Assembly: GCF_000015805.1 (NCBI RefSeq)
Contig: NC_009073.1
Coordinates: 1,170,001-1,202,000, forward strand
Length of the DNA: 32,000 nucleotides
Source of the DNA: Pyrobaculum calidifontis JCM 11548
GTDB taxonomy: Archaea; Thermoproteota; Thermoprotei; Thermoproteales; Thermoproteaceae
Direction of reading: 5' to 3'
The notes beneath the pieces were generated by a model that saw only the letters and a program-made list of their open reading frames with translations, was not told where the DNA came from and ran no database searches. The position numbers and the translations under genes are program-made. The stretch's first letter is position 1. Every line of letters begins with the position of its first letter. This document shows positions 11,581-32,000 of this stretch, piece by piece.

Positions 11581-11581
11581 A

Positions 11582-11875: not shown

Positions 11876-11893
11876 AGGAGCACAATAGGCCCC

Positions 11894-11917: not shown

Positions 11918-11921
11918 TTTG

Positions 11922-12527: not shown

Positions 12528-12605
12528 TGAAGTGCAGGCACCTGCAATTTAAACCTTTCACCACTGCAGAAGTATAAGGATAATACCACGGGAAACTGAA
12601 AGTTT
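12528..12605. promoter_or_regulatory. Divergent csa3 / csa1 promoter region with palindrome TGCAGG-CA-CCTGCA
   Basis: For csa3 (minus): GGTTTAAATT (12555-12546), then the palindrome at 12533-12546, then ATG 12527. For csa1 (plus): CCACTGCAG (12561-12569), then AGTATAAGGATAATA (12571-12585), about 25 nt before GTG 12606. Confidence 0.5.
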
Positions 12606-14319: not shown

Positions 14320-14585
14320 TGGTGGCATACGACGTGTCGGAAGACCACGTGCGCAACAAGGTAGCCGAGACCCTAGCCGCCTACGGCCTCCAGAGAATAC
14401 AGCGCTCAGTTTTCGCAGGCCGCCTACCCCCAGCCCTGGTGAAGGAGCTTGCGGAGAAGCTACGCCGAGTCACAAGAGGGGCAAACGCCGACGTGATAAT
14501 CATAAGAGTAGACAAGAGGGCCCTAGACACCGCCGTGAGGATAGGCCCCGCTCTGCCAAGGGAGGGCAATGTCCACCTGCATTAA
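14310..14585 (+). CDS. cas2: Cas2
   Basis: This is the C-terminal part of track ORF 13698..14585, starting at ATG 14310: MYIVVAYDVSEDHVRNKVAETLAAYGLQRIQRSVFAGRL... (91 aa, the Cas2 ferredoxin-fold opening). It overlaps the cas1 stop. Confidence 0.88.
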   Translation: MYIVVAYDVSEDHVRNKVAETLAAYGLQRIQRSVFAGRLPPALVKELAEKLRRVTRGANADVIIIRVDKRALDTAVRIGPALPREGNVHLH

Positions 14586-15138
14586 CCCATCCCTAATCCG
14601 ACAGTACCTCTACTGTCCAGCCGCCGCCTACTACATCGCCACAGGCCTAGCCGAGCCCCCCACCGAGCGGATGCGCCGAGGAAAGGAGATCCAGCGAGAA
14701 GCCATAGAGGCCATAGCCAAGGCCCTACAAGCCGAGAAGGTAGAACACAGCCCACGCCTAGAGGGCTGGGGAATATGCGGCGTAGTAGACGCCGTCCTCT
14801 GGATACGCGGCAGGCCAGCCCCCCTCGAAGTGAAGTACACCACCCCACCCCCCAAAACCCCACTACCCCACAAAGCGCAGGCCGCCGCCTACGCCCTCGC
14901 CGCCCAAGCCACCTACCGCAAAGCCGCAACACACGCCTACATATACTACGCCGAGGCCGGAGAGGTAAGGACAGTACAACTCACCCAAGACCTAACCCAC
15001 CTCGTCCTCCAAACCGCCGCCCAAGTAGCCAAAATACTAAAAGGCTGGACCCCACACCCCCAGCCCACCCCCAAATGCCAAGGCTGCTGGTACAAAAAAT
15101 ACTGCGGCCACACCCAGACACAAGTAGACACAATATAA
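14569..15138 (+). CDS. cas4: Cas4 (RecB-like exonuclease with Fe-S cluster)
   Basis: N-terminal LIRQYLYCPAAAYY, a central GVVDAV...PLEVKY nuclease motif, and C-terminal CQGCWYKKYC. It overlaps the cas2 stop by 17 nt. Confidence 0.88.
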   Translation: MSTCINPSLIRQYLYCPAAAYYIATGLAEPPTERMRRGKEIQREAIEAIAKALQAEKVEHSPRLEGWGICGVVDAVLWIRGRPAPLEVKYTTPPPKTPLPHKAQAAAYALAAQATYRKAATHAYIYYAEAGEVRTVQLTQDLTHLVLQTAAQVAKILKGWTPHPQPTPKCQGCWYKKYCGHTQTQVDTI

Positions 15139-15254
15139 CACCCAGGGGACTTAACACCTTCACTAAGCCCCTCACAGCAAGTGCTTCTATCCCTCAACTT
15201 TCTGCCAGAATTTTTACATATTGTACCCAGTCGTGTCCCGTTGTGATTACATAT

Positions 15255-15816
15255 CTTTTCAAATCTCTTTTAGAGGTTCGCGCACTCTGTCGCAGTGAAG
15301 GCGGCCTGCGACACGTCGAATTCATTTCAATCCTCTTCTTGAGATTCCTTCGCCGTGGGTCTCGCGATTGGGTTCATTTTAGGTGGGGGCATAGCTTTCA
15401 ATCCTCTTCTTGAGATTCGGGTAATTAGGATATGGGAGGCCGCGGGTATGAAAAGATATGCTTTCAATCCTCTTCTTGAGATTCATACTAACGTGTCCGC
15501 ATATGAAACCTACGCATTAAGAGCTTTCAATCCTCTTCTTGAGATTCTCTATTTGTAAAGGGGCGAATTTACGCCGTTGTTAAACTATGTAAACTTTCAA
15601 TCCTCTTCTTGAGATTCCTCGCCCCGCCCGGGAGTGGGGGTACGACGGGGGCCGGGGTCGCTTTCAATCCTCTTCTTGAGATTCACCAGTTGACGAAGGT
15701 CTGGTCTCCGTGGTTGGACCAGTTCGAGAACTTTCAATCCTCTTCTTGAGATTCGCCAGCGCTCTCTCCAGAGCTGGCTTCCGCATTATCTGCTTTCAAT
15801 CCTCTTCTTGAGATTC
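15255..15816 (-). CRISPR. CRISPR array 1: 9 repeat copies (7 exact, 2 degenerate at the low-coordinate trailer end), 8 spacers
   Basis: The plus-strand repeat is CTTTCAATCCTCTTCTTGAGATTC (24 nt). Copies start at 15324 (C1 to A), 15395, 15461, 15524, 15594, 15661, 15731 and 15793. A fossil copy CTTTTCAAATCTCTTTTAGAGGTTC is at 15255-15279. Spacers are 38-47 nt. The strand is assigned because the reverse complement GAATCTCAAGAAGAGGATTGAAAG ends in the canonical 8-nt crRNA 5' handle ATTGAAAG. Confidence 0.95.
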
Positions 15817-18155: not shown

Positions 18156-20531
18156 CTTTTAATCCACTCCTAGAGATTCGGTATTAGATACGGTGACTGG
18201 TAAGGGGTTTGCCGTGATTACGTCCTTTCAATCCTCTTCTTGAGATTCTTGCCAAGTACGGCTTCGACGTTGAGGATATAATACCGTCGGTGGCTTTCAA
18301 TCCTCTTCTTGAGATTCCTACCCTTCCTCTCGATGGTGCCCTGGAGAGAGATACTCAGCTTTCAATCCTCTTCTTGAGATTCTCACTATAGGAAGCGGGG
18401 CTATACGGTAGATACATACTATGAGCTTTCAATCCTCTTCTTGAGATTCTGGCCACGTGGTGCATGGTTATGATAACCACGCCGAGGCGTTAGCTTTCAA
18501 TCCTCTTCTTGAGATTCTGTAGGTAGCTGTTTCCCCTTAACCCCCTCCTTAAGCCTTTGGTATCTTTCAATCCTCTTCTTGAGATTCGGTGGGTGGAGGT
18601 GGAGGTGCTATGACTGGCGAGTACGAGAGACTAACTTTCAATCCTCTTCTTGAGATTCTCGTGACAGTCAACGGCCCCTCCAGTGGGTGTGACAACGGCG
18701 CTTTCAATCCTCTTCTTGAGATTCATCTAGAGACTCGGTGGGGGTGTATATGTCCCACAGCTTCTTAACTTTCAATCCTCTTCTTGAGATTCCGCCAGGT
18801 CGGCGGCGGCCTTGTACACCCACCTCCTCACCTTCCGCTTTCAATCCTCTTCTTGAGATTCTGGGAGTCCACGCTTACGGATATCATTTTCACGTCGTTG
18901 TTCTTTCAATCCTCTTCTTGAGATTCTGCTTTATGACAAGAAGACACGTGGATGCGACCACAGTAGGAACTTTCAATCCTCTTCTTGAGATTCCTATAGG
19001 GGCAAAGTGCGCCTACTGTGCACTGATGTGGGGTGCATTGTCTTTCAATCCTCTTCTTGAGATTCGAGCGCACGTAAAGCGCTAGAGGGGGCGCGCACGT
19101 TCTTGCTAACTTTCAATCCTCTTCTTGAGATTCCGTCCCCCGTCGTCGCCAGGACAACGTCGTTGTTGGAGAAGCTTTCAATCCTCTTCTTGAGATTCCC
19201 ACAAACAATGCCCGCGCGCCTAGGCGCGCGCGGGAAAGCGCCTTTCAATCCTCTTCTTGAGATTCTGGTAAATGCACAGCGATTAATTCCATTTTTGCAC
19301 CAGTAGACTTTCAATCCTCTTCTTGAGATTCCCTCCACCTTCTCTGTCCTGGCGCTTAGGGGTCTCGTGGCTTTCAATCCTCTTCTTGAGATTCCTCTCA
19401 AGTCCACGTGGCGGGGCGCCAGCTCCTCAATACGCCCTTTCAATCCTCTTCTTGAGATTCCAAATCTACCGCCGTTATACTCAATCATAGCGGCATAGTA
19501 TCTTTCAATCCTCTTCTTGAGATTCTCCTAAAGCGACCCTCCTTGCAACACTTCGCCACTAGCCACAGCCTTTCAATCCTCTTCTTGAGATTCCCCCCCA
19601 CCTACCGATACGTGGCGCGTGGCCCCGTGGTGCTGCTTTCAATCCTCTTCTTGAGATTCTACCAGCTTGACGTAGGCGGTGCCAGGCACCACCTCGCCCT
19701 CGACTTTCAATCCTCTTCTTGAGATTCCTACACAGCCTCTATGTGCACTTGCCCCAGGCCTGGCTAAGTGCTTTCAATCCTCTTCTTGAGATTCCGCGCC
19801 GTGCATGTGGGCCGCATGGGCGCGCAAAATATGTAGTCTTTCAATCCTCTTCTTGAGATTCCCACGTCGAAACCCACGTGGGGGGCCAGAGCGTTGACTA
19901 GCCTTTCAATCCTCTTCTTGAGATTCGCGGGCGAGGGCCACAGACACGGTCTCGCTTATGGACGCGTCTTTCAATCCTCTTCTTGAGATTCGGCGCTTGT
20001 CTACCAAATCTCGATTGGCAAGAGACAAGTGCAACTTTCAATCCTCTTCTTGAGATTCCGAGGCCCACGGCGGCGAGTGCGACATCTATAGCCAGACCGC
20101 TTTCAATCCTCTTCTTGAGATTCATTACTGTGGACATGGCTCCTCGAATATCCGCCTTAACTGTGACTTTCAATCCTCTTCTTGAGATTCCAGCCACGGG
20201 TTAACCACCACTTGAAACAGTGTCACATATGCGTAAATGCTTTCAATCCTCTTCTTGAGATTCAGGTGCCTGTTTGCAGAAGGCTATGATGAACGCACTA
20301 TAAACGACTTTCAATCCTCTTCTTGAGATTCGACAAAATAGTCAACGGCTTTCAACACGACATATAGCTGTATACCTTTCAATCCTCTTCTTGAGATTCC
20401 GCTTATTGAAAAGCCAAGCGAGTACGCCCATATCGGCAGGCCTTTCAATCCTCTTCTTGAGATTCGGTGAAGGTGGCCACAGTGCTTAAGGCCCTGTGCA
20501 AAAAGCTCTTTCAATCCTCTTCTTGAGATTC
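18156..20531 (-). CRISPR. CRISPR array 2: 36 repeat copies (35 exact plus 1 degenerate trailer copy), 35 spacers
   Basis: Same 24-nt repeat as array 1. Exact copies start at 18225, 18294, 18359 ... 20442, 20508. A degenerate copy CTTTTAATCCACTCCTAGAGATTC (4 mismatches) is at 18156-18179. Repeat periods are 63-73 nt, giving spacers of 39-49 nt. Orientation is assigned as for array 1. Confidence 0.97.
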
Positions 20532-21050: not shown

Positions 21051-22466
21051 TCAAGTCTCTTCTTCTAGCTTTTTTAAGAGCTCGTTTGCCAGTTTGTTTA
21101 GTTCCTCCTTGTCTATTAGCCCCGTGGGCAGTTCGACTTCTATGTCTCTGTCGCTTAGCTTGAGTCTAGCGTTGTCGTCTCTGCTCAGCCTCCCGTGCAT
21201 TAGCCTGTTTCGGTACTGCCGCACTCTCTCGAAGACGGGGTCTCTCTTCACAAGGTCCGCCTCTGCCTTCGCCCACTCGCTGTCCCCCACCTTTGCCTCG
21301 CCTCGCGTGCCCTTGCGCCATAGGCTGAGTGCCACGGCCCACTCGCGGGCTATGGATAGGGCCCTGTCGGCGTACTCTCTCTCCGCCAGGAGTCTGAGGC
21401 CTTTTTGGACGAATTCGACGTTGGTGCCGCTGCGCAGCTCCGAGACTGCTCTTTTCGTCAGCGTCAGCGCTATGCTTGTGACAGGCGGCCAGGGGGGCTC
21501 CCCCGCGTGTCGGCCCCACTCCTCGTGCGGCTTGTCGTCGAGTGGGAGCTCTTGAGAGACGAGGCGGCTGAACTTCTGCTCGGCCTCCTCCAGCTCTTCG
21601 CCCAGCTCCTCGACCAGCCTCCGCGCGGCTACCAACTGCCCGCTCCTAAGCGCCCACAGCAGTTGGGCGCCCTTCTTGAGCAACGCGTTTACCCCGCTGT
21701 ACACATCTCTGTACTTGCCCAGCCTCTCTCCCACCTCTCTGTAGTACCTTACGGGGAGGAGCCTCTCGTCGAGCCACTTCCACGCCTGTCCCCCCGCCGC
21801 CACCTCTCCCACTGCCCTCGTGGCCTCGTCGAGGCGTAGGAACTCGACTCTGGCACCCTCCTCGACTCTGACCATGACGGGGGCCGCGTAGATCTCCACC
21901 TCGGCGTCGTAGGCTATGGGCAACAGCGCGGCCGCCAGCAAGGTGGCTGAGATCAGCACGTTTGTGCCGTGCGTCACATCGACGTAGAGCCGGCCGGAGT
22001 CCTTGGCGTACTTTGAGAGGATTAGGTACACGGAGCTGAAGACGAGGTTGAAGCCGTAGCTGGGGAACTCCCTCGCACCGCCGCGCTCTACGCGCACCTC
22101 GTTCCCCTCCTCCACCAGCCTGAGAGGCGAGGCGATTCCCGGGTGGGGGACCACGTAGCAGTCAAAGCCTCTCCTAAGGAGCTCGTGGACAGCGGCGTCT
22201 TCAAAAGAATCTGATTCTCTAGCAAAGAGCCTGCGTCCCCCATAGCGCGACTTGGCCTCCAAAAGCTTTCGGTAGCTCTCGCAGTGGCCTTCCTCAAACA
22301 GCGTCTCGGGGACAATGACGGCGAGCTTTGCCGGGCTTTTAGCCCTGGCCAAGGCCGCGGCGCTGATGAAAGACCTGTACTCACTGCCGTCGACGACGTA
22401 CGTCACTTGGCGGTACTGAGAGACGTCGCCGCCGAGCCAGACCAGGGCGCCCCCGCCAGAGCCCAT
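21051..22466 (-). CDS. csx1: Csx1-family CARF-HEPN ribonuclease (predicted cyclic-oligoadenylate-activated effector)
   Basis: It has the CARF motif YVDVTHGTNV and the C-terminal HEPN R-x4-H motif (RQYRNRLMHGRL), and is 471 aa. Minus-strand TATA ATTTTTATAC (22493-22484) lies about 20-27 nt upstream of ATG 22466. Confidence 0.8.
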   Translation of the reverse strand: MGSGGGALVWLGGDVSQYRQVTYVVDGSEYRSFISAAALARAKSPAKLAVIVPETLFEEGHCESYRKLLEAKSRYGGRRLFARESDSFEDAAVHELLRRGFDCYVVPHPGIASPLRLVEEGNEVRVERGGAREFPSYGFNLVFSSVYLILSKYAKDSGRLYVDVTHGTNVLISATLLAAALLPIAYDAEVEIYAAPVMVRVEEGARVEFLRLDEATRAVGEVAAGGQAWKWLDERLLPVRYYREVGERLGKYRDVYSGVNALLKKGAQLLWALRSGQLVAARRLVEELGEELEEAEQKFSRLVSQELPLDDKPHEEWGRHAGEPPWPPVTSIALTLTKRAVSELRSGTNVEFVQKGLRLLAEREYADRALSIAREWAVALSLWRKGTRGEAKVGDSEWAKAEADLVKRDPVFERVRQYRNRLMHGRLSRDDNARLKLSDRDIEVELPTGLIDKEELNKLANELLKKLEEET

Positions 22467-22515
22467 ATACAGTGTAGGGGGCGTATAAAAATGCTTGCGC
22501 CCCCTCGCAGCCTCT

Positions 22516-23304
22516 TCAGCAGGGCGTCTCTAGGGCGTCGATGAGGGCGGCTATGTGGGGCGCGAGGGTCCTCCGCCTGGCCTCCTCGGCCAGCACGCCG
22601 AGCTCCACGAGGTGGTGGGGGTCGACGCCCCACGCCTTGGCCAAGTCCTCGGGCTCCCCCTCGCCTCTCGCCACCTGCCTCGCGGTTGGGTGTAGGTCGA
22701 TGGGGAGGAGGCCTAGGCTGACTACGTCGCGGAAGCTCTCGTGGACGTAGAAGACGTCGAGGGCCCCCGCGAGGTAGGCCGCCACCACGGCGAAGGTGGA
22801 CTCCGGCTTGTAGCCCCCCGTGGCCACGACGTACGGATTCACGCCCCTCGCCTTGGCGCACTTGACGTCTCTCGCCACGGCCCTGGCCAGCTCCCCCAGT
22901 GACCTGGAGAAGTCCCGGCCCAGGCCCGGCACCACCTTCACCTCGGCGGCGCAGTCCTCCGTCGACACGCCCAGCTTGGCCAGCGCCCTGCAGAAGGCCC
23001 CCTCCAGCGCCCGCGCCGCAAGGCGGCCGGCCCCGGTGTCAGAGGCGTAGAGGGCGGCCCTCACCCGCCTAAAGAGGGCGGGCCACCTCTTCGCCACCTT
23101 AGCCACAGTGTTCAACTCCGCGCAACACCTCTCGGGGTCCGCCACGGCGAACTCCACCAGCCTCTCCACGGGGCCCCGCTCCGCCTCCTCCTGCCTCGGG
23201 TCGTCCGGCGCCAGCCTTGACCAAACCTCGGGGACAATCCCCTCCCTAGCCGCGTTAGCCAAGATAGACGTCCCCACGGTAATTGCAAAGAAGCTCGGCT
23301 TCAT
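22516..23304 (-). CDS. CARF-domain-only protein (APE2256/Csm6-N-like family) with C-terminal helical/wHTH-like tail; candidate ring nuclease or cOA sensor
   Basis: ORF 22516..23322, trimmed to ATG 23304, because minus-strand TTTTTTATAG (23332-23323) abuts ATG 23322. Motifs: FFAITVGTSIL (GTS), CAELNT and VVATGGYKPES. No HEPN or other nuclease motif is present. Confidence 0.65.
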   Translation of the reverse strand: MKPSFFAITVGTSILANAAREGIVPEVWSRLAPDDPRQEEAERGPVERLVEFAVADPERCCAELNTVAKVAKRWPALFRRVRAALYASDTGAGRLAARALEGAFCRALAKLGVSTEDCAAEVKVVPGLGRDFSRSLGELARAVARDVKCAKARGVNPYVVATGGYKPESTFAVVAAYLAGALDVFYVHESFRDVVSLGLLPIDLHPTARQVARGEGEPEDLAKAWGVDPHHLVELGVLAEEARRRTLAPHIAALIDALETPC

Positions 23305-23583
23305 GCCACCCGTACTGCCCATCTATAAAAAAGTTAAAAGAGGTAGCCCCCACCCTGAGGTTCGCCTCAGCGACCACAATTCAATCGCCAGACTTACATT
23401 GGCACAGAGTCCATGTATGTTTTCTGTAGGTCATACAACGCCGCTCCCCTTGGCATAGGGGCGCTCAAGATGCTTATTCACACAATTTTCTCACGAGCAA
23501 CAAGCTAAAGTCCTTCTTAATTTAAGTAGTTCTATTCTGCGTACTTGCCATCACGCAGTAGAAGTCTCCTACTGCTATACTTG

Positions 23584-24489
23584 TCATTTTTCGTCTTCTA
23601 CGGTGGCAAGAATAGCTACCTCTGGGAAGTGCGGTATCCACTCCATAGACTCCACCAGGCTGGTCCTGAGGTCTATTTCTCGCGCGTCTCTGCGCACTTC
23701 TCTGCTCATTAGATAGATCTTAGTCCACTTCCTCGTTGCGCCTCTTATGAAGTCTATGTTGTGCGTAGAAGCTACGAAAAACAGCTTGGCCCCCCGCTCC
23801 TCTGCCCTCTTTGTGAGAACGGCGGCGAGGTGGCCGAGGAAGAAGGCTTGTAGCGGCCCGGCGTGGGCCTCCGGCTCTTCGACGAAGAGGTAGACTGGCC
23901 TTTCCCCGGTTGCAGCGTAGGCGTATTTGAGCCCCGCGGCCACCATGGCGGCGGAGAGGCCTGCCGGGAGTTGGCGTAGCCCCGCCCCCGAAGGGCCTGC
24001 GCGGTCTCTCCAGCGGATTTCCCCGCCGTCTACCGCCAGCTCGATGGGCAGTAGGTCGGCCGCGTCGGCCTTTAGCCCCATCTCTCTTATTGCCCTCTCC
24101 ATACGCGCCAGCTCCTCCTCCACTGCGGCTTCTGCCTCTGCCAAGAGCTTTGGATCGGCGAGGCGCCTCATTGAGAGAAGCGCCTTAAGCCCCCTCGGCT
24201 TTAGCGCAAATCCGCCGGAGGTCTCTGTCCCAATTTCTGCGAATTTGGCAACGGATCTGTAGGCGTCTAGGAAGAAGACGTGTCCCCTCTCCTCCGTGCA
24301 CCTCGCCGCTGTCTCTGGGCACTCCAGCTCCGCTGGTCCTCCCAGCGCCCTGGCTATACTGCACAGCGTAAGCGACTTGCCCGAGGCGTTTGGCCCAACG
24401 AAGAGGGTGACGGGGGCCAGCTCCACCTCCGCGTCCAGCGCCACTGTCCACCCGCCAAGCTGGAACTTTGCAGAGACTCTGCACGTCAT
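23584..24489 (-). CDS. Stand-alone ABC/RecF-like (AAA_15/21-type) ATPase, translationally coupled to cmr3
   Basis: Walker A FVGPNASGKSL, signature-like QLPAGLSAAM, Walker B with DEPE-type tail VYLFVEEPEAHAGP, and H-loop FVASTHN. Its ATG 24489 overlaps the cmr3 stop as ATGA. Confidence 0.8.
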   Translation of the reverse strand: MTCRVSAKFQLGGWTVALDAEVELAPVTLFVGPNASGKSLTLCSIARALGGPAELECPETAARCTEERGHVFFLDAYRSVAKFAEIGTETSGGFALKPRGLKALLSMRRLADPKLLAEAEAAVEEELARMERAIREMGLKADAADLLPIELAVDGGEIRWRDRAGPSGAGLRQLPAGLSAAMVAAGLKYAYAATGERPVYLFVEEPEAHAGPLQAFFLGHLAAVLTKRAEERGAKLFFVASTHNIDFIRGATRKWTKIYLMSREVRRDAREIDLRTSLVESMEWIPHFPEVAILATVEDEK

Positions 24490-25328
24490 GGAAGTCTGGC
24501 GAGAGCCCCGTAGCCCAGCTCGCCTAGGAAGAACTGGGACTGGTCGCAGTTCTCCACCTCTACCTCAGTGCCAGGTGGCAGGGCGGGGTACATGGGCCTC
24601 CTCTCTCTGCACACCTCGCTGAAGCCGAGACCCCACTGCACCACTTTCACCTTCGGCTCCTCTCCCGGCTGTTCTAAGCCTCTCACAGCCCTTATGCAAC
24701 TGGGCAACTCTCCCTCTGGCATGAGGAGGGGCGTGAGCAACACGGCGGCGCCGCTCTTGGGCGGCAGGTAGGGGTCGGGCCTCAGCTCTGGGTCCGCCTC
24801 CACCGCGGCCAGCCGGCCCTCTCCGCCTAGCCTCACCAGGCCCGTGGGCACCACGTCGGCGTCTATGAAGTAGACGGCCTCCACCGGGGCGTAGTAGGTT
24901 GCCCTGTAGAGGTAGCCCTGCGCCGCCGTCTTATGCTCAGTCAACATGAGACCTATTCTCGAGAACTTTGCCACCGGCACACCCCCCGCCGCCTCACCGC
25001 GCTCTCTAGGCGCCCACATGTGCGTCTTAATCCAGCCCTCAGCCGCCGCGCCCACCAGCACTTCGGAACCCCTACGCACCACGGCGAGGGGCCCCCACAC
25101 CCTCCTCACCCCAAGCGCCTTAGCCACCTCCCTAAGCGCCGCAAGCGCGCCCTCCGGCCCCTTCCCCGGGCAGTCTATCTTCACGCCAGCGAGATACCCT
25201 AAGGCGCCCAGCAACGTGGAGGGCTGCGGCACTATCCACACGTCGTCTCTCGTCACCGTCCCCGGCGTAGACAGCGGCCTAGTGCCGTAGTGAGTTGGAC
25301 CCAGAGGCCTAATTCTAACCGCCCTCAT
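24486..25328 (-). CDS. cmr3: Cmr3 (type III-B RAMP subunit)
   Basis: ATG 25328 overlaps the cmr2 stop as ATGA (the track's alternative is GTG 25334). The N-terminus MRAVRIRPLGPTHYGTRPLS...PQPSTLLGALGYLAG and the position after cmr2 are typical of Cmr3. Confidence 0.75.
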   Translation of the reverse strand: MRAVRIRPLGPTHYGTRPLSTPGTVTRDDVWIVPQPSTLLGALGYLAGVKIDCPGKGPEGALAALREVAKALGVRRVWGPLAVVRRGSEVLVGAAAEGWIKTHMWAPRERGEAAGGVPVAKFSRIGLMLTEHKTAAQGYLYRATYYAPVEAVYFIDADVVPTGLVRLGGEGRLAAVEADPELRPDPYLPPKSGAAVLLTPLLMPEGELPSCIRAVRGLEQPGEEPKVKVVQWGLGFSEVCRERRPMYPALPPGTEVEVENCDQSQFFLGELGYGALARLP

Positions 25329-27949
25329 ATCCACGCCCTAAGAGCCTTCAGTAGCTCGACGGCGTTCTTCCACTTCTCCCCGCGCCCATCTACGTAGCAC
25401 GCCGCCTCCACCACCTTGTCGGCGAGCTCCTTCTTGTCCGTGTTTCTGCCTACCAAGTACCGCAGGACGTACTCCACCTCCGCCGCCTCTCCCCACGCCT
25501 CGACGTCGTAGGGCAGATTTCTGCCGAGAGTCCTCCTGGCGTAGGCCTCGGCGATTGCCTTAACGCTCCCCACCGCGCTCACCTTGGTAAACCCCACGTG
25601 GCCCGTAGAGGTGGAGATAGCCAAGGCGTCTTTGCCCGGCACCCTATCCTTCGCCTCGTCGAGCAACTCAGCCGCCTTGTCCACCTCCACAGACATCATG
25701 TCTGTCACCGCGTGGGCAACCCTAAGCGAGTAGCTTCTGCCATATGCGGTGAGGGCGGGGAGGAAGTAGCTCTCCGACAACGAGTGGAAGCCCCCCTCCC
25801 CCCAGTAGTTCTCTCTAGTCTCCTTTACAATGTCAAACGAGGGGGGCTTAGCCGAGAAGGCCAGCAAGTCGTCGCCCCCGGCGAAGACCAGCTCTCCCTG
25901 GCTTTTTTCCACAATGGCGGCGTCGCCTATGGCTGTGACCATAAGCGCCGCAGAAACAGCGGCGTAGTAGGCCGGGCTTGGAACAACTAGGTAGCCCCCA
26001 CCGCAGATGTGCTTCGCGGTCTCGCGCATAGCTCCAAGAACTCTCAACGCGTGCTTCATATCTTTTTCAAACTGTTCCCTGTCTCTCACGACTTCCACGT
26101 CTTGGGGCATCTGCGGCTCCTTAGGCAGACACCCCCTGAGAAGCTTGCCCACGTTGTCCCCATCTGCCCTAATAACGACGTACTCAAGCCCCGGCGTCCA
26201 AGGCTCTTCTCCAGCCCCCTTACACTCGGCCAGCCGCCTATCCGCCGCCTCGGAGGAGCCGAAGACGTCCTCAACATCTTCACCGTCTAAGACTCTCTCC
26301 ACAAGCCCCTTGATCTCTCGACACCTTTCACTGTCGAAATAATGCTTAAGGTAGTAGTAGTTGAGCGCTACCACTTCCACAGAGTCAATGCCAGCTCTCT
26401 TGGCAGATCTGAGGTAGAGCGCCCTCTTTATCAGGTCCACGGGGCCCAGCGCCTCCTTCGGCTTAAACACCTTAGTCAAGTTTGCGTCTTTTTTCTCTTC
26501 AATTCCCAGCGACTTGAGCCAGCTATGTGTCTCGTCGTCGTATGTCAAATTGCCGTCTTTAAACACGCCGCCGAATTTCACCACGGCGGGCTGGCTTGGG
26601 TCAAGGCTACTGTGCATCCAAGTTCCCTTATAGGTCTGAGAGAACCTCGGCCGACCCTCCTTGTCGAACCAGCTGGGGTACTTCGGCAGGGCCCTCCTCT
26701 TTCTCTCGTTGACCATCTCCAACAGCCTGGCAAAGAGAAACCTCCTTAAGTCCCCGCCTAGTAGCTTCTTCACCTCATCGTCTATGCCGAACCTCTCCGT
26801 CGTCCACTTCTCGAGATTTCTCAGACCCTCTTCCACATACGCAACTGCGACTCTGATGGGGAGATAACGTACCGACTCCAGGCCCTTGAGCCCCGCCTCC
26901 ACGACCCTCTTTACGCCATCATCTAGCCCCCCTAGGTCAAAGGGGAGGTTTGGCGCCTCCCCTCCCCTAGCGGCCTCCAACACCTCTTTTAAAACCTCGT
27001 CGAAGTAGGAGTAGGCCTCGTCTTCCCCCTTGCACTCCGGCAGGGCGAGGTAGAGAGTGCCGGGGAACAGCGACGACCTTCTAATCAACCCGTGGAGCCA
27101 TTCGTCCACTGGCAATTGCTGGCTTACGCCGAACTTCTTTCCCACGTAGTAGGACATGGCCCCGGCGTATAGCCCCCACACTCCCTTTACCCTTCTGTCG
27201 AGCTGGGCGTAGAAGAGCGGGTTGAAGCGCGGCGTTGGGGAGAGCAGGATGTCGGGCCCGTGTCTCTCCATAAACCGCCACGCGACGCGCCAGGCCACGA
27301 GGGAGACTAGGAGGCTCCCGGCGCGGTAGTCCCCAGCCTTACGCGCAGACTTCAAGATAGACTGGATGCCCGGCAGATCTACCACCATTAGGCACCCCCC
27401 GCCCCTCGTCCAGTTCAACATAGAGGCGGTGGCGTAGAGGTGGTCGAAGATGGAGTGGGTGGGGACTCTTGTGTCCGCCGGTAGCGTGGGCAGGCCGGCC
27501 TTAATCCACGCCAGCTCGTACGCGGCGTAGAATGCGAAGTAGAGCCACCTCTCGTCGCCCTTCGCCGCCTCCAGCACCCTCCTCACCTCCCCCACGAACT
27601 TCCCCAGCCTCTCCCTAAACTCCTGGGGGGTCGGCTTCTTGATTTCTCTCCGCTCTCGGCCAAAGGGGTTTATCATGTACTTGGCCTTCACCCAGTAGTT
27701 GCCCGGGCTCGGGGGGAGGGCCCACCGGTCAAAAGACGCGGCGAGGCGGTCGGCCTCGGCCACGGCCGCGCTCTCTTCGCTCCCTGGAACTCCGCCGAAG
27801 CCCATGCCCTTGAAAATTTCGTCGAAGAGCTTCGCGGCCTCCTCTTCGTGGCTGTTTTTGTCGTAGACCCGGTAGTCCGCGTCCTCGAACCACAGGGCCT
27901 TGTGCGGCGGGTCGTGGAGTAGTGCAAATGATTTTAAAAACCAGTTCAC
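25325..27949 (-). CDS. cmr2: Cmr2 / Cas10 (type III-B large subunit) with N-terminal HD motif and GGDD cyclase motif
   Basis: GTG start. The N-terminus is FALLHDPPHKALW (HD). The first palm domain is VVIRADGDNVGKLL and the second is ELVFAGGDDLLAF (GGDD). 874 aa. Confidence 0.9.
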   Translation of the reverse strand: MNWFLKSFALLHDPPHKALWFEDADYRVYDKNSHEEEAAKLFDEIFKGMGFGGVPGSEESAAVAEADRLAASFDRWALPPSPGNYWVKAKYMINPFGRERREIKKPTPQEFRERLGKFVGEVRRVLEAAKGDERWLYFAFYAAYELAWIKAGLPTLPADTRVPTHSIFDHLYATASMLNWTRGGGCLMVVDLPGIQSILKSARKAGDYRAGSLLVSLVAWRVAWRFMERHGPDILLSPTPRFNPLFYAQLDRRVKGVWGLYAGAMSYYVGKKFGVSQQLPVDEWLHGLIRRSSLFPGTLYLALPECKGEDEAYSYFDEVLKEVLEAARGGEAPNLPFDLGGLDDGVKRVVEAGLKGLESVRYLPIRVAVAYVEEGLRNLEKWTTERFGIDDEVKKLLGGDLRRFLFARLLEMVNERKRRALPKYPSWFDKEGRPRFSQTYKGTWMHSSLDPSQPAVVKFGGVFKDGNLTYDDETHSWLKSLGIEEKKDANLTKVFKPKEALGPVDLIKRALYLRSAKRAGIDSVEVVALNYYYLKHYFDSERCREIKGLVERVLDGEDVEDVFGSSEAADRRLAECKGAGEEPWTPGLEYVVIRADGDNVGKLLRGCLPKEPQMPQDVEVVRDREQFEKDMKHALRVLGAMRETAKHICGGGYLVVPSPAYYAAVSAALMVTAIGDAAIVEKSQGELVFAGGDDLLAFSAKPPSFDIVKETRENYWGEGGFHSLSESYFLPALTAYGRSYSLRVAHAVTDMMSVEVDKAAELLDEAKDRVPGKDALAISTSTGHVGFTKVSAVGSVKAIAEAYARRTLGRNLPYDVEAWGEAAEVEYVLRYLVGRNTDKKELADKVVEAACYVDGRGEKWKNAVELLKALRAWI

Positions 27950-27981
27950 AAAGCTTAAAACTGTTACATTTTTTATAGTTT
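27950..27981. promoter_or_regulatory. 32-bp bidirectional promoter between cmr2 and cmr4
   Basis: TTAAAA (27955-27960) lies 22-27 nt upstream of cmr4 ATG 27982. CTATAAAAAA on the minus strand (27978-27969) lies about 24 nt upstream of cmr2 GTG 27949. Each TATA-like element sits next to the start codon of the opposite gene. Confidence 0.5.
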
Positions 27982-28902
27982 ATGAACGGCAAATTGATGT
28001 GGATACTGTCGCTCACCTCTCTACACCCAGGCGTGGGTAGGAGCGAGGAGGCCCAGGTGGACCTCCCCGTCCAGCGGGACGAGTTCGGCCTGCCCACAAT
28101 ATGGGCGTCGTCCCTCAAGGGCGCCATTAGGAGCCGGATAGAGAAGACGCTCTTCAACAACGGGGTCTGCGTCGGCGACAAAGGCGAGTGCGCCACCTTC
28201 CTCGCCGCCTTTGGCCCACGCCCCGACGCCGCCCACGAACACGCCTCGGGCGTCGTCTTCCTAGACGCAAAACTCGTGGCAATCCCCGCCAGGTCGCTGA
28301 GGGGGGTATGGCTGTGGGCCACCTCCCCCATGTTGCTGAACTTCGTGAAGCTCTACGCAAAGGCCCTAGGCGTCGATGTACAACTGCCGCAGCCCCCCGC
28401 CGTGAAGGAGGGCCAAGTAGCGCTCACAAGCGGCGACTACGCCATAGACGGCAAACTCGCGGTAATAAACGAGATGGAGTTCGAAGTCGCCACAACCCAA
28501 GCCCCACCCCTCAACCTACCGCCCATCAAGGCCGCAACCCAGATAGTGGGGACGCGAGGCGTGGCGTACCTCCACGACAACGACCTCCTACAGGTAGTGA
28601 AGAGGAGCCTCCTCGTCCAATACCGCGTTAGGCTAAACGAGAAAAAGACAGTAGAGACTGGGCCATGGAGCGAGGAGTACATACCACCATTCACAGTCTT
28701 CGCCTCAGGCATATACTGCGCCAGAAAGCCAGACAAGGTAAAGGTAAAACTCCCCAAGAAAGAGGGGCAAGATCAACACCCAGTGGAGGAGGTCGACGTG
28801 AAGGGAGACCTCTGCCAGTACGTGGCTGGGAAGGCCAGCGGCGTCTTCTGGCTCGGCGGAAAGGAGACTGTGGGAAAGGGCCTGGCGGAGGTGATATGGT
28901 AG
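27982..28902 (+). CDS. cmr4: Cmr4 (type III-B backbone RAMP / target-RNA-cleaving subunit)
   Basis: LTSLHPGVGRSEEAQVDLPVQRDEFGLPTIWASSLKGAIRS carries the Cmr4/Csm3 signature, including the conserved Asp context VDLPVQRD. The C-terminal G-rich loop is LGGKETVGKGL. Confidence 0.88.
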   Translation: MNGKLMWILSLTSLHPGVGRSEEAQVDLPVQRDEFGLPTIWASSLKGAIRSRIEKTLFNNGVCVGDKGECATFLAAFGPRPDAAHEHASGVVFLDAKLVAIPARSLRGVWLWATSPMLLNFVKLYAKALGVDVQLPQPPAVKEGQVALTSGDYAIDGKLAVINEMEFEVATTQAPPLNLPPIKAATQIVGTRGVAYLHDNDLLQVVKRSLLVQYRVRLNEKKTVETGPWSEEYIPPFTVFASGIYCARKPDKVKVKLPKKEGQDQHPVEEVDVKGDLCQYVAGKASGVFWLGGKETVGKGLAEVIW

Positions 28903-29336
28903 ACTGGCTAGAAAAGGCAATCAAGTGCGTAGAGCTTGTAGAGAGGCACTGCGACAATGAGGCAAAAAAGGCGTTTCGGACTAGGGCACGGCAGATGCCC
29001 TCTGAGCTCTACTACGTCGGGGCCCCCTACGCCTTGGCCATCCTAGCGGCTAGGTCCAGCGAGAGGCACATTTTCACAGGCAAGAGCCTGGAGGAGTCCA
29101 TAGCGGCAGTATGCAAGGCGTCGGAATTGGGCAATGAGGATAAGGGGTACGCCGTCTACGGCCTCTGCCTTGTGGATGCGTTGCAGGAGCTGGGGATAAG
29201 GGCCGAGAGCCTCACTTCTACCCTCAGAGAGTTGAACAAGCTTAGAGGCGTGGCCGAGGCCCGCCTAGCCGAGTTCGTAGACTGGGTCAAAAAACTCGCC
29301 GAGGCGAAGTTCGAGCTTGTCAAGCATGAGAGCTGA
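28896..29336 (+). CDS. cmr5: Cmr5 (type III-B small subunit)
   Basis: ATG 28896 overlaps the cmr4 stop, in the frame of track ORF 28665..29336. It is a 146-aa helical protein (MVDWLEKAIKCVELVERH...QMPSELYYVGAPYALAILAAR) between cmr4 and cmr1. Confidence 0.7.
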   Translation: MVDWLEKAIKCVELVERHCDNEAKKAFRTRARQMPSELYYVGAPYALAILAARSSERHIFTGKSLEESIAAVCKASELGNEDKGYAVYGLCLVDALQELGIRAESLTSTLRELNKLRGVAEARLAEFVDWVKKLAEAKFELVKHES

Positions 29337-30375
29337 ATTCGAGGTAACGATAGCGACCCCCCTCTCCGCGGGCTGGTACGACCCCGCCCTAGTGGACAGA
29401 AACTTCTACATCCGCCCCACGGAGATCAAAGGAGTGTGGCGGTGGTGGGCTAGGGCCTTCGCCGCCGGCGCCCTGTACGAGGCGGGTTGCACAGGCCCAG
29501 ACTTCCTCAGGCGGGTACACGAAATTGTGGCAGAGAGACTTGGCCTAGGCTCCACCAAAGCCGCCTCGCGGTACGACCTCACAGTGGAGGTGCTGGAGAG
29601 GCCCAGAGTAGTCGACAGCTCGAGGGAAAATCTCCAGCGATTTAGGCTATTGAATCTTGGCAGAAGAAAGGGAAGACCTGCAGTTGAATATGCGATTGGT
29701 GGGAGATTCAAAATAATTCTAGAGGGTGACGCTGATATCCAATTAGTTGCATCCATATTAGCAGTAGCTCTAACCCTCTCGGGCATAGGCAAGGGAGGCC
29801 GTAAAGCACTTGGGTCTCTTGATATTATCAGAGTCTCTGGGGCCGCACCCCGACGCCCGCTAAATGAAATAATAAACGAGATAAGACGACAAATATCAGT
29901 ACAACGATGTGGGCCTCCTAGGGAACTCCCCAAGATTTCTGCTGTGTCGAATGAGGTATTTGAAGTATACAAAGTGAACGTGGACTTCCATCATCTTCAT
30001 AATATGTTCCTAAGATCAGAAAGAGCTAGAATGGCAAAGTTGTACTACGCCGCACCAGACCCGCTTAATCAAAAGGCATGGTTCCTTGGCCTACCAAGAG
30101 AGCAGAAGGGCACAGGCTATCATATCAACGACATAGAGGTGAAGAGAAGGGCTTCGCCTATCTTTGTTGCGTGGCATTCCATCCAGCATGTATTCGGAGG
30201 CGGAGGCTATATTTCCATATTTCTCTCGCAAGATTGGCCTACTCAACTTACTTGGGTAGGAGAGAGCGGTAGAAAACTAATTCAGATAAATGAACAAACG
30301 CTCCGAGATGCCAAGTCGGCCTTCCTTGCTCTCTTAAACCAATTCGGGTGGAAGCCGCAGAGGGTATGGCCCTAG
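29326..30375 (+). CDS. cmr1: Cmr1 (type III-B RAMP subunit)
   Basis: ATG 29326 overlaps the cmr5 stop (the track's alternative is TTG 29317). FEVTIATPLSAGWYD...IRPTEIKGVWRWWARAF is the Cmr1 signature, and the G-rich loop is SGIGKGGRKALGSL. Confidence 0.8.
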   Translation: MRAEFEVTIATPLSAGWYDPALVDRNFYIRPTEIKGVWRWWARAFAAGALYEAGCTGPDFLRRVHEIVAERLGLGSTKAASRYDLTVEVLERPRVVDSSRENLQRFRLLNLGRRKGRPAVEYAIGGRFKIILEGDADIQLVASILAVALTLSGIGKGGRKALGSLDIIRVSGAAPRRPLNEIINEIRRQISVQRCGPPRELPKISAVSNEVFEVYKVNVDFHHLHNMFLRSERARMAKLYYAAPDPLNQKAWFLGLPREQKGTGYHINDIEVKRRASPIFVAWHSIQHVFGGGGYISIFLSQDWPTQLTWVGESGRKLIQINEQTLRDAKSAFLALLNQFGWKPQRVWP

Positions 30376-31070
30376 CCTGCCTCAGACCGGGCTACAACAT
30401 CTACAGTTGCGTAGTGAGGCACATCATCAGCGCTTACGAGGGCCCCGGGTCTCCAAAGTTCACAGAACTAAGTAATCAAATTACAGTTGAGCTAAAGGAT
30501 GTGAAAATTGACACGGCCCCCATCTCCGCCTACCTGATGTACCTAGAGGAGAAGCTCAAGGGAGGCTCCCTCGTGGCGCGGATAGAGGCAGAGGTGACCA
30601 CCCCCCTCGTCGTCCACGTGAGAAACCCCTACATGCCCCTGGAGATAGGCCTGGCGTGGCACCCCTACTTCAACGCCCCCTACATCCCCGCCACCACCAT
30701 AAAGGGAGCCCTCAGGGCGTACTCCCCGCCCCAGATCTGCGGAAGGCCGGCCGCAGAGGTCTTTGGCACAGTAGGCGACCAAGGCGCACTAATAGTGACA
30801 GACGCCCTCCCCATAACCCCAGACGTGTTGGGCGCCGACGTGATAACCCCCCACTACAAAGAGCCAGACCAGGTAGAAGAACACAAGGTGAGACCGATCC
30901 CCATAGTCTTCCCCGTGGTAAAGCCCGGCGCGAGATTCGCCTTCCACATAGCCTCCACAGAGCTAGAACAGCGGTGCCTCTCCGAGATATGGCCAGCCAT
31001 AGACAGAGCCTTCGCAAAAGGCATAGGAGCAAAGACAAAGATAGGCTATAGCAGACTCAAAAAACTATAA
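30366..31070 (+). CDS. cmr6: Cmr6 (type III-B RAMP subunit)
   Basis: ATG 30366 overlaps the cmr1 stop (the track's alternative is GTG 30348). Motifs: IPATTIKGALRAY, VITPHY and the C-terminal GIGAKTKIGYSRLK G-rich loop. It is shorter (234 aa) than the Cmr6 proteins I remember. Confidence 0.75.
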   Translation: MALACLRPGYNIYSCVVRHIISAYEGPGSPKFTELSNQITVELKDVKIDTAPISAYLMYLEEKLKGGSLVARIEAEVTTPLVVHVRNPYMPLEIGLAWHPYFNAPYIPATTIKGALRAYSPPQICGRPAAEVFGTVGDQGALIVTDALPITPDVLGADVITPHYKEPDQVEEHKVRPIPIVFPVVKPGARFAFHIASTELEQRCLSEIWPAIDRAFAKGIGAKTKIGYSRLKKL

Positions 31071-31094
31071 AAGCATTAGCGTGAGAATCAGACT

Positions 31095-31919
31095 ATGAAA
31101 CTCAAAGTGCAAAACCTTAAGCACATTACCGAGGCTGTGCTGGAAGGCGACAGAATCATCTTATATGGTCCTAATGGCGGGGGCAAGTCCACGCTGATAC
31201 ACACTGTGGCCCTAATCCTTGGGGCCGCTCTCGGAGTAAAGGCCCACGACGAAAATATTATAAACCAAGGGGACTTCCACGACGACACATACGTGAGGTT
31301 TGAAGATTTCGACGTGTTTGAGATCAGACAACGTAAGCTGTGGTGGAGGGGGAGAGCCTACCCCCTCACGGAGCCCCTTAAAGTCGCAGACTTCTCTCTA
31401 TGGCATATAACCGAGTCCTATTTCGCCATATACGGTAGAGTTCCGCAGTGCTTGGGCGACCCCATTGAGGGAGTTCCCTCGGGCGTCATAGGATACAGCT
31501 ACTTTGATATAAGAGTGCTTTGTCCAGCGGCAGCTGAAGCCTCGGAAGACCTTTTTAAAATCTACTACAATGTGGCCGAGATAGGACTCGACGGAGCGAC
31601 GACGTGGACTACGCTGTCCCGCCTCTCCTACGGCCAGAGGAGGGCCATCGTTATCCTCGCCGCCCTCGAGCTCGGCGGTTATGTCTTAATTGAAAACTTG
31701 GAGTCCGGTCTCCACCTCGATTTACTAGTGTATGTGCTTAACGCCGCCTCGGTTTCAAAGGGCAAAGTTATTGCAGAGACCCACAGCGGATTAGCCCTTA
31801 AGCTAGCTGTAAAATACGGTATACAGCCATACTACGTTGAAAGAAGCGTAGAGAAGATAACAAACTTTGACATCAAGTTATTTAAGCGTGAAGCAGAAGT
31901 TTTTTCATCCTTAATATGA
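31095..31919 (+). CDS. Second stand-alone ABC/RecF-like (AAA_15/21-type) ATPase, last gene after cmr6
   Basis: Walker A ILYGPNGGGKSTL, signature LSYGQRRAIVIL, Walker B YVLIENLESGLHLD, and H-loop VIAETHSG. TATA-like CTATAAAAG (31065-31073) overlaps the cmr6 stop about 25 nt upstream of ATG 31095. Confidence 0.8.
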   Translation: MKLKVQNLKHITEAVLEGDRIILYGPNGGGKSTLIHTVALILGAALGVKAHDENIINQGDFHDDTYVRFEDFDVFEIRQRKLWWRGRAYPLTEPLKVADFSLWHITESYFAIYGRVPQCLGDPIEGVPSGVIGYSYFDIRVLCPAAAEASEDLFKIYYNVAEIGLDGATTWTTLSRLSYGQRRAIVILAALELGGYVLIENLESGLHLDLLVYVLNAASVSKGKVIAETHSGLALKLAVKYGIQPYYVERSVEKITNFDIKLFKREAEVFSSLI

Positions 31920-32000
31920 GACTTACTACTAATATAAAAACTCTAAGAGGTCTATCCATCTATATACAAAATAAAAATGTAAACTCTCTAAAATGTAGTG

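Follow-up and report, generated by a model that had tools for sequence, protein, structure and literature searches.

Gene content and transcription units of the type III-B locus

[quoted passage not shown] ATPase1 (locus tag Pcal_1282, inferred from position) lies between cmr3 and the gene for a CARF protein, while ATPase2 (inferred locus tag Pcal_1288) is encoded on the other strand. The initial annotation proposed that ATPase1 is coupled to cmr3 through a shared ATGA, just as cmr3 is coupled to cmr2. Both overlaps were found, which supports placing ATPase1 in the operon, with its translation coupled to that of cmr3. The same annotation held that no nuclease is adjacent; directly downstream, however, lie the genes for the Cas_APE2256 CARF protein and for Csx1, the latter with a HEPN-like motif. 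To judge from the sequence, the cas10-cmr3-ATPase unit probably ends at the T-rich tract ahead of the CARF gene, which probably also marks the promoter of that gene. Since terminator-like matches there were not above chance in a bacterial-type promoter and terminator scan, both assignments are putative.

Table 1. Positions of genes and sequence features in the window
Feature	Position	Strand	Details
Csx1	21051..22466	-	CARF + C-terminal RNRLMH HEPN-like motif
CARF protein, Cas_APE2256 family (Csm6-like / ring-nuclease-like)	22516..23322	-	Pfam 2.5e-33, TIGR02619 4e-42
T-rich tract with TTTTTATA box	23325..23345	-	just upstream of CARF gene
Decayed partner-gene remnant	23333..23461	-	in-frame stop, cysteines lost
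ATPase1	23584..24489	-	301 aa; ABO08706/WP_011849964; ABC/SMC-type; last gene of cas10-cmr3-ATPase unit
H-loop STHN	23758..23769	-	ATPase1 residues 241-244
Walker B / D-loop VEEPEAH	23863..23883	-	ATPase1 residues 203-209; context YLFVEEPEAH
Signature-position segment LPAGLS	23953..23970	-	ATPase1 residues 174-179
Walker A GPNASGKS	24373..24396	-	ATPase1 residues 32-39
ATGA overlap, cmr3 stop / ATPase1 start	24486..24489	-	
cmr3	24486..25328	-	ATG at 25328; between cas10/cmr2 and ATPase1
ATGA overlap, cmr2 stop / cmr3 ATG	25325..25328	-	
cas10/cmr2	25325..27949	-	874 aa; GGDD motif present
cmr4	27982..28902	+	
cmr5	28896..29336	+	
cmr1	29326..30375	+	
cmr6	30366..31070	+	
ATPase2	31095..31919	+	274 aa; ABO08712; Pfam AAA_21 7.5e-13
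147-aa Cys-rich gene	31916..32000	+	cut at window end; ATGA overlap with ATPase2 stop, 31916-31919

ATPase2 had been described as a second, divergent copy of ATPase1 that ends the other cmr operon, so that an ATPase would close each arm of the locus. It is an AAA_21-type ABC ATPase with the motifs GPNGGGKS, LSYGQ, IENLE, and ETHS, and its relatives are 273 to 283 aa long. The AF2 model (pLDDT 89) matched SMC, Rad50, and PtuA in Foldseek, and searching PDB sequences with the family profile returned only P-loop-level matches. ATPase1 and ATPase2 have the P-loop alone in common by BLASTP (E=0.004), and a profile-profile comparison (hhalign) reached 30% probability, confined to the C-terminal motifs. 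By these sequence comparisons, the two are different families within one superfamily, and a recent paralogous origin was rejected. ATPase2 does not end its operon, either: its stop overlaps the 147-aa gene, which is followed by a 181-aa gene just outside the window, as seen in locus L012 (100% identical to positions 21095-32000 and extending past the window end). The supposed symmetry of the two arms is not supported, given the family of ATPase2 and the two further coupled genes behind it.

Conserved motifs and predicted fold of ATPase1

The 301-aa ATG-to-stop reading frame and the set of ABC nucleotide-binding motifs reported initially were confirmed. Residues G32, P33, N34, G37, K38, and S39 are invariant in both family alignments (A1 and A2), as is H243 of the H-loop in the family alignments, and E204, E205, P206, E207, and H209 do not vary even among relatives of 27 to 33% identity; ATPase1 keeps every residue that is invariant across those relatives. 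In the hhalign comparison, the ATPase1 motifs pair with LSYGQ, IENLE, and ETHS of ATPase2. The LPAGLS segment lies where an ABC signature is expected, ~20 to 30 residues ahead of Walker B, and sits opposite LSYGQ, so that its designation as signature-like holds with respect to position. Its sequence, however, diverges from an LSGGQ-like motif, with Pro replacing the canonical Ser (the family consensus is LSTGF). Walker B has E-E where D-E is usual, with Glu at the Asp position. Because of the Ser-to-Pro change in the signature and the Glu-for-Asp change in Walker B, competence for ATP hydrolysis is not assured.

The AF2 model of ATPase1 (pLDDT 82.4, pTM 0.85) gave 300 Foldseek matches in the PDB at E<=1e-3, all to ABC nucleotide-binding domains (NBDs), SMC, Rad50, RecN, OLD, or PtuA, with modest TM-scores (0.35 to 0.48). 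As modeled, then, ATPase1 is an ABC/SMC/Rad50/PtuA-type head, in agreement with the SMC/RecF-type head fold raised by the initial annotation. A family-profile sequence search of the PDB returned nothing significant for ATPase1. Pfam matches (AAA_23/AAA_15) were weak and below curated cut-offs, and PADLOC gave weak partial matches to the models for mad8 (the best, 1.2e-6), GajA (5e-5, ~45 residues), AriA, and NsnB. As originally stated, ATPase1 has no transmembrane, nuclease, or other effector domain by Pfam, NCBIfam, or PADLOC.

Four other identities were rejected. An ABC transporter NBD would be expected neither from the lack of an ABC_tran match nor from the surroundings, where the neighbors are cas genes and no permease or membrane protein lies nearby. 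The RecF model TIGR00611 did not match ATPase1 and gave ATPase2 a score of 21.7 bits, far below its cut-off of 172. A canonical Cmr1-6 subunit is inconsistent with the ABC ATPase fold and with the lack of RAMP, Cas10, or Cmr5 matches. Finally, a chance open reading frame on a GC-rich strand is inconsistent with the existence of homologs and the low dN/dS (below).

In the structural searches, both ATPases had Septu PtuA (with PtuB HNH) and retron-associated PtuAB (9n69, 8eea, 9nnb, and 8sux) at or near the top of their matches. Like them, PtuA is soluble and has an ABC head that carries a helical insert; its effector is small and encoded by a separate gene, and PtuA has been recruited by a further defense system, the retrons. 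It differs in sequence (11 to 14% identity), in its size of ~500 aa with a long insert, and in its HNH partner, and the PADLOC PtuA models match the P-loop of ATPase2 only. OLD, GajA, and AriA share a D-loop of the pattern 'EPE..H..P' and an H-loop with THS/THN, together with weak Pfam (AAA_15, AAA_21) and PADLOC matches, all below curated cut-offs for ATPase1, and, for OLD, a structural match (6p74, Foldseek). Unlike OLD, Gabija, and PARIS, ATPase1 has no Toprim, fused or adjacent, and neither HNH nor Toprim domains were found in the ATPase, its neighbors, or the partner proteins. Rad50, SMC, RecN, and RecF likewise share the ABC head, in which an insert separates the Walker A lobe from the signature motif, but the long coiled coil, hinge, zinc hook, and Mre11 or kleisin partner are absent here. 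PtuA, GajA, AriA, and Rad50 work as oligomers that are gated by ATP and govern a nuclease partner. The Foldseek matches to PtuA-HNH complexes (9n69 and 8eea) fit an analogy with these proteins.

Distribution of the ATPase1 family and decay of its small partner

The ATPase1 family is tiny. Among 5.8 billion clusters there were 13 homologs, and a profile search with a broader alignment against a word-indexed protein database returned the same 13 proteins and nothing further; among 1.84 billion, there were 70 representatives at E<=1e-3, for which the sources named were Pyrobaculum and Caldivirga. Searches of IMG/VR viral contigs, INPHARED phages, and PLSDB plasmids yielded no relatives, and a fold search of BFVD gave generic ABC folds only. 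Spacers of the window's two CRISPR arrays gave nothing beyond chance 14- to 17-mers against L001 or any other locus compared.

Type III genes are immediately adjacent to the ATPase (within 100 bp or overlapping) in 14 of the 17 informative family loci. Two type III architectures occur: the ATPase either follows cmr3, as in the window and L002, or is divergent from csm2-RAMP(-cas10), as in L003, L004, L006, L008, L018 to L022, and L025. Loci L001, L005, and L023 have no cas genes within the sequence at hand. The initial annotation had considered that homologs might be found mostly away from CRISPR-cas loci; with type III genes beside 14 of the 17, that objection fails, and the linkage of the ATPase1 family to type III CRISPR-cas is strongly supported.

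Defense genes cluster in islands, and this general tendency would favor an independent AAA_15/AAA_21 ATPase-plus-effector defense module of the Septu/PARIS/Gabija type, which would share an island with the cmr genes and have no functional link to Cmr. The weak partial PADLOC matches and the three loci without cas genes point the same way, as does a published caution that the type III linkage of such genes could be an artifact (Shah et al. 2018; PMC6546367). We nevertheless regard such a module as unlikely in view of the immediate adjacency in two architectures, the stop/start overlap with cmr3, the absence of a Toprim or HNH partner, and the reported co-evolution of such ATPase families with their cognate CRISPR systems (Vestergaard et al. 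2014; PMC3973734).

Of the 14 homologous loci linked to cas genes, 7 (L003, L004, L006, L008, L019, L021, and L025) have a homologous Cys-rich partner gene of ~131 to 161 aa directly behind the ATPase gene. A tblastn search of the whole window located a remnant of this gene, 42% identical (E=2e-5) to residues 68-112 of the L003 partner. The "effector-less" state noted for ATPase1 can thus be attributed to secondary loss of the Cys-rich partner; the term is accurate for the protein itself, which has no effector domain, but not as a design feature, since relatives keep the partner and the window keeps its remnant. The ~131- to 161-aa Cys-rich proteins, the 147-aa and 181-aa proteins, and the ~131-aa product of a third gene had no Pfam, PHROG, or PDB matches, and the sole NCBIfam hints were far below cut-off (YraN, E=0.015, for the 147-aa protein; acylphosphatase, E=0.14, for the third-gene protein). 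Accordingly, the readings of the ATPase1 partner as a PIN-like candidate and of the 147-aa protein as a PD-(D/E)xK-like candidate are unproven.

Loss of the partner raises the question of whether ATPase1 is itself a decaying relic, functionless and carried in the cas10-cmr3 transcript toward pseudogenization. Decay would be consistent with the in-frame stop in the partner remnant, the Pro in the signature, and a helical insert that falls ~28 aa short of that in 329-aa homologs. Furthermore, sister type III-B loci of P. oguniense and Pyrobaculum sp. MAGs carry cas10-cmr3-csx1 without the ATPase, and the same arrangement, again ATPase-free, is given in the published gene table for the second III-B locus of P. 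calidifontis (PMC3396285). In contrast, three diverged copies (window, P0002, and P0003/L002) have kept an uninterrupted reading frame, the family-invariant catalytic residues are all kept, and the 4-nt overlap with cmr3 is preserved in L002. Comparison with the L002 copy over 203 codons of the 90%-identical N-terminal part gave dN/dS = 0.205, a value that speaks for continued function of the partner-less form. A relic is therefore rather improbable.

Accessory ATPases of this kind have been on record since 2014, so the component is not "undescribed," as the initial annotation had suggested. Vestergaard et al. (2014) named Cas_RecF with RFas and Cas ABC ATPase with sRRM near crenarchaeal type III modules (PMC3973734, Table 5); the small partners, RFas of ~170 aa and sRRM of ~150 aa, are "always associated" in the published definitions. 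In the survey of Shah et al. (2018), cluster 17 is entered as "Cas_RecF, SMC ATPase, 330 aa," and its partners are clusters 83/84, of ~160 aa, and cluster 108, of ~180 aa, whose representative is Pcal_0278 of P. calidifontis (PMC6546367, sections 2.3, 2.5, and 3.1). Reference sequences of the published clusters include P186_0874, YN1551_2137, and VMUT_1481. Matched by published description, ATPase1 probably belongs to this catalogued Cas_RecF/Cas ABC ATPase/cluster 17 group: it is an ABC/RecF/SMC-like ATPase within the range of ~280 to 350 aa beside a crenarchaeal type III module, and its relatives have a small partner directly downstream. ATPase2 also resembles the group in being accompanied by small genes, the second of which, at 181 aa, fits the size of cluster 108. 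ATPase1 differs from the published group in lying inside the cas10-cmr3 operon, in its shorter length (301 aa, against 326 to 352 aa in its relatives), and in retaining its partner as a pseudogene remnant only. No functional study of Cas_RecF or Cas ABC ATPase accessory genes was found in the literature searched, and the ATPase1 locus reveals no new class of system.

Possible roles of ATPase1

On balance, we favor the explanation that ATPase1 is a lineage-specific ABC-type (SMC/Rad50/RecF/OLD-PtuA-like) type III accessory ATPase of Thermoproteales and other Crenarchaeota that has been captured, has become partner-less, and is still under selection. The usual form of the family would be a cassette of a ~330-aa ATPase, the Cys-rich protein, and sometimes a third small gene, with transcription running divergently to that of a csm2-RAMP-...-cas10 operon. 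The ATPase of P. calidifontis and close relatives may have been captured into the type III-B cas10-cmr3 operon with an ATGA overlap. It would then have lost ~28 residues of the helical insert while its partner genes decayed, with purifying selection apparently persisting on a protein whose catalytic motifs appear all intact. By analogy with other ABC heads, ATPase1 is expected to bind ATP and dimerize head-to-head; the dimer could clamp a nucleic acid or protein partner, and hydrolysis would reset it. The ancestral ATPase may have gated or positioned the Cys-rich partner. Made together with Cas10-Cmr3, ATPase1 itself might act at the Cmr complex or next to it, or else by way of the small proteins whose genes follow ATPase2. 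From this analogy, we infer that ATPase1 would work as a dimeric clamp or regulator gated by ATP.

The position of ATPase1 directly behind cas10-cmr3, with translational coupling, also suggests a new stoichiometric Cmr subunit docked on Cas10-Cmr3 and providing an ATP-driven effector step. There is precedent in Cmr7 of the Sulfolobales, a lineage-specific Cmr subunit bound to Cas10/Cmr3 (PMC6546367, section 2.3) and, like ATPase1, encoded by an additional gene that is restricted to one lineage and accompanies a type III-B module. Cmr7 is an unrelated protein and not an ATPase, and its binding to Cas10/Cmr3 has been shown, whereas such binding is hypothetical for ATPase1. That ATPase1 has lost its own partner yet continues under purifying selection is also consistent with a subunit. 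However, most relatives are divergent from the effector operon and not within it, and closely related III-B loci work without the ATPase, which makes a stoichiometric subunit quite improbable.

A more speculative proposal, to which we give very little credence, is that ATPase1, once its partner was lost, was domesticated as an additional ATP-hydrolyzing subunit, or as a regulator, of Cas10-Cmr3; conceivable tasks include loading the effector on transcribed targets, releasing it, or recycling it. Type III CRISPR systems are not known to use an ATP-driven motor, and domestication of this kind, if true, would give type III its first effector with a step of its own driven by ATP. The locus is a simplified case in which ATPase1 stands alone, selected and coupled to cas10-cmr3, near an ATPase2 cassette that keeps its small partners. 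It is thus a convenient test bed for contact between the ATPase and the effector complex and for the role of the Cys-rich partners. A possibility linked to the domestication proposal is that mobile elements bear catalytically dead copies of the ATPase, such as those on contig L001, as decoys against it.

The ATPase1 gene and protein

ATPase1 is an ABC-type head whose ATP-binding and predicted hydrolysis residues are intact. Together with ATPase2, Cas10, Cmr4, Csx1 and Cas3′, it is identical to the corresponding protein of Pyrobaculum calidifontis JCM 11548. Its reading frame was borne out by ORF calls, and the start-stop overlaps that had been noted between cmr2 and cmr3 and between cmr3 and ATPase1 were both found; ATPase1 is translationally coupled to cmr3. 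The gene fills the slot left unnamed between csm6 (Pcal_1281) and cmr3 (Pcal_1283) in the table of Bernick et al. (2012; PMC3396285). Since Cas10 retains GGDD and both Csx1 and a CARF protein are adjacent, the locus carries cOA-type effectors of the usual kind. A TTTTTATA box lies 3 nt 5′ of the annotated CARF-gene ATG (window 23304-23345), and the NCBI protein is shorter (262 aa), beginning at the second ATG, 23304. This arrangement fits a leaderless CARF transcript with its own promoter, apart from the cas10-cmr3-ATPase unit.

Features of the P. calidifontis III-B locus and its CRISPR arrays (window coordinates)
Feature	Position	Strand	Remarks
CRISPR array 1	15324-15816		repeat 24 nt, CTTTCAATCCTCTTCTTGAGATTC; 8 repeats
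CRISPR array 2	18156-20531		repeat 24 nt, CTTTCAATCCTCTTCTTGAGATTC; about 36 repeats, first degenerate
Csx1, CARF-HEPN RNase	21051-22466	-	3′ of ATPase1 with CARF gene
Cas_APE2256 CARF protein	22516-23322	-	directly downstream of ATPase1
ATPase1	23584-24489	-	ORF, 301 aa
ATGA overlap cmr3/ATPase1	24486-24489	-	
cmr3	24486-25328	-	
ATGA overlap cmr2/cmr3	25325-25328	-	
cas10/cmr2	25325-27949	-	GGDD motif kept in Cas10
cmr4, cmr5, cmr1, cmr6	27982-31070	+	divergent from cas10-cmr3-ATPase1
ATPase2	31095-31919	+	after cmr6
147-aa Cys-rich gene, start	31916-32000	+	cut by window end; L012 10822-11804 spans it and the next gene

The ATPase1 motifs lie where the initial annotation had placed them. 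Relatives down to 27-33% identity all share the Walker A residues, E204-E205-P206-E207-x-H209 and H243. The signature segment is also correctly positioned, because hhalign sets it against LSYGQ of ATPase2, but the Ser of the family consensus LSTGF is replaced by Pro. An AlphaFold2 model built with the family alignment (pLDDT 82.4, pTM 0.85) matched only ABC-type heads in the PDB by Foldseek, with modest TM-scores (0.35-0.48): retron/Septu PtuA (9n69, 9nnb), transporter NBDs, SMC and condensin heads, Rad50, RecN and OLD (6p74). This places ATPase1 in the ABC-type superfamily and not in any single matched family. Pfam gave only sub-threshold matches (AAA_23/AAA_15), NCBIfam no match, and PADLOC weak partial matches to mad8, NsnB, GajA and AriA.

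Homologues numbered 13 among 5.8 billion protein clusters, and when 1.84 billion representatives were searched exhaustively with HMMER, only 70 relatives reached E<=1e-3, of which 32 reached E<=1e-10. The family is thus small and, with Pyrobaculum and Caldivirga as its named sources, essentially confined to Thermoproteales. Compared with its closest DNA-level relative, on contig L002, ATPase1 is 90% identical over the N-terminal 203 codons with a dN/dS of 0.205, so it is under purifying selection in its partner-less form. This value and the motif conservation argue against ATPase1 being a relic without function.

Genomic neighbourhoods and published relatives

Type III genes directly adjoin the ATPase1-family gene in 14 of 17 informative loci (18 distinct loci, less the 1.4-kb L024, too short to judge). 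The family is therefore linked to type III modules, and its homologues are not found mostly away from CRISPR loci. In the window and L002, cmr3 overlaps the ATPase start; in L003, L004, L006, L008, L018-L022 and L025, the ATPase gene is divergent from a csm2-like gene and a RAMP gene, with the L020, L022 and L025 contigs reaching Cas10 as well; and cmr3-like fragments lie beside it in L016 (which matches L015) and L017. Such recurrent adjacency, together with the cmr3 overlap, speaks against an unrelated defence cassette that merely shares the island. No cas genes were seen in L001, L023 or L005, the ATPase lying at the contig end in the latter two. ATPase1 is missing from the sister III-B loci of P. 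oguniense and Pyrobaculum sp., where the arrangement is cas10-cmr3-csx1; its in-operon position is thus a derived trait in the P. calidifontis lineage.

The L005 gene (8295-9818; uncultured Thermoproteales MAG), a distant relative at 27% identity, is preceded by genes for a retropepsin-like aspartyl protease and a HepT RNase. Among the type III-D accessory genes of Sulfolobales, Vestergaard et al. (2014; PMC3973734) include one for a small aspartic protease.

The observation in the initial annotation was largely right, but its claim of novelty fails, for this accessory ATPase group is already catalogued. Vestergaard et al. (2014; PMC3973734, Table 5) defined two ATPase-partner pairs, Cas_RecF with RFas proteins (~170 aa) and the "Cas ABC ATPase", always accompanied by sRRM proteins (~150 aa), and argued that these ATPases co-evolved with CRISPR systems. 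In Shah et al. (2018; PMC6546367), cluster 17 ("Cas_RecF, SMC ATPase"; 31 members, ~330 aa) invariably adjoins proteins of cluster 83/84 (~160 aa) or, in thermoneutrophilic crenarchaea, of cluster 108 (~180 aa), the latter represented by Pcal_0278 from the P. calidifontis genome itself; the authors speculated that target cleavage is powered by the ATPase. The gene pairs seen here agree with these published descriptions in protein size, gene order and taxon. The literature searched contained no functional study of these ATPases or their partners. ATPase1 is probably a member of this group, and stands out chiefly because it lacks a partner and has been captured into an operon; its locus could be an entry point to an unanswered question and would not surprise archaeal type III specialists.

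The decayed partner gene and a possible mechanism

A homologous Cys-rich partner is encoded 3′ of the ATPase in L003, L004, L006, L008, L019, L021 and L025. The 260-bp gap 3′ of ATPase1 is not empty. The L003 Cys-rich protein matches window 23461-23333 (minus strand; 45 residues aligned at 42% identity, E=2e-5 for a search of the whole window), where there is an in-frame stop and several cysteines are gone. Similarity to the C-terminus of a third small gene, that of L004 (L004 2289-2684), is seen where the gap ends, and the L002 gap contains the same third-gene remnant. ATPase1 had been described as effector-less. No intact partner gene follows it, but given the remnant this state is secondary, the ancestral partner having decayed.

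The Cys-rich partner has a conserved D...DG...(D/E)HE...D pattern and Cys clusters, and a metal-binding, nuclease-like protein is suggested.

Rad50/SMC, PtuA, GajA and AriA are ABC ATPases and provide the analogy for a mechanism. ATP binding would drive a head-to-head ATPase1 dimer that would clamp nucleic acid or hold a partner, with hydrolysis as the reset; in the ancestral cassette, the dimer would gate the Cys-rich partner. The Cmr complex may be what the orphan ATPase1 acts on or works alongside; alternatively, it may cooperate with the small proteins from the ATPase2 cassette. It is also possible that ATPase1 is a true new Cmr subunit.

ATPase2, mosaic genes and the rest of the window

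ATPase2 had been taken for a second, divergent copy that ends the other cmr operon; neither description holds. BLASTP between the two proteins matched the P-loop alone, an all-against-all comparison put them in two families, and profile-profile comparison gave 30% probability, over C-terminal motifs only. ATPase2 is clearly AAA_21-type (Pfam 7.5e-13) with a canonical LSYGQ, and its model (pLDDT 89) resembles SMC, Rad50 and PtuA heads. Its stop overlaps the start of the 147-aa gene by ATGA (31916-31919). Contig L012, 100% identical to window 21095-32000 over 10,906 bases, extends further; on it the 147-aa Cys-rich gene product is followed by one of 181 aa (beginning MLIALLEKGICGGGCGG), with overlapping starts. 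The same trio lies 3′ of cmr6 in P. oguniense and Pyrobaculum MAGs. The 147-aa protein has CCC/CCCC clusters and a D...ExK pattern, and shows weak similarity to the YraN family (E=0.015). Database searches confirmed neither this D...ExK/YraN hint nor the nuclease-like reading of the Cys-rich partner of the ATPase1 family.

Both ATPase families also occur near each other outside the window, in L008 (7358-8209 and 16655-17638), with one gene after cmr6 and the other beside a second csm2-RAMP module, and in L016 (3514-4467 and 5935-6993), where an ATPase2-like (AAA_21-type) gene lies ~1.5 kb from the ATPase1-family gene, beside the cmr3 fragment.

The block EEPEAHAGPLQAFFLGHLAAVLTKRAEERGAKLFFVASTH (window 23758-23883, ATPase1 residues ~203-244) is nearly identical at the nucleotide level in L001, L002 and L003, synonymous sites included; the N-terminal halves of the genes sharing it are only ~46-48% identical. 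C-terminal tails are of two types that do not track N-terminal relatedness: in its tail the window gene is closer to L003 (82% identity) than to L002 (41%), whereas its N-terminus is 90% identical to L002. This mismatch and the near-identical block point to recombination at EEPEAHAGPLQAFFLGHLAAVLTKRAEERGAKLFFVASTH having produced mosaic genes.

L001, an 11.9-kb metagenome contig (GC 52%), has two tandem homologues (2818-3510 and 3955-4791) with Walker A destroyed (GPNANEF and GHPLYSTY), the first also lacking Walker B and the H-loop His. Its other large ORFs matched no PHROG family and gave only a weak Peptidase_A24 Pfam match; by eye, a Cas4-like Cys-cluster protein and a DHH-motif protein are encoded. 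The contig may be a mobile element with decoy ATPase1 copies; the window's CRISPR spacers did not match it.

A 147-aa ORF at 19045-19488 was rejected as spurious, being translated CRISPR array. The upstream part of the window (400-15400) holds a type I module, listed by Bernick et al. (PMC3396285) as cas3″, cas3, cas5, cas7, csx1, cas4′, cas1, cas2 and cas4; Cas3′ at 7484-8950 matches WP_011849950 exactly.
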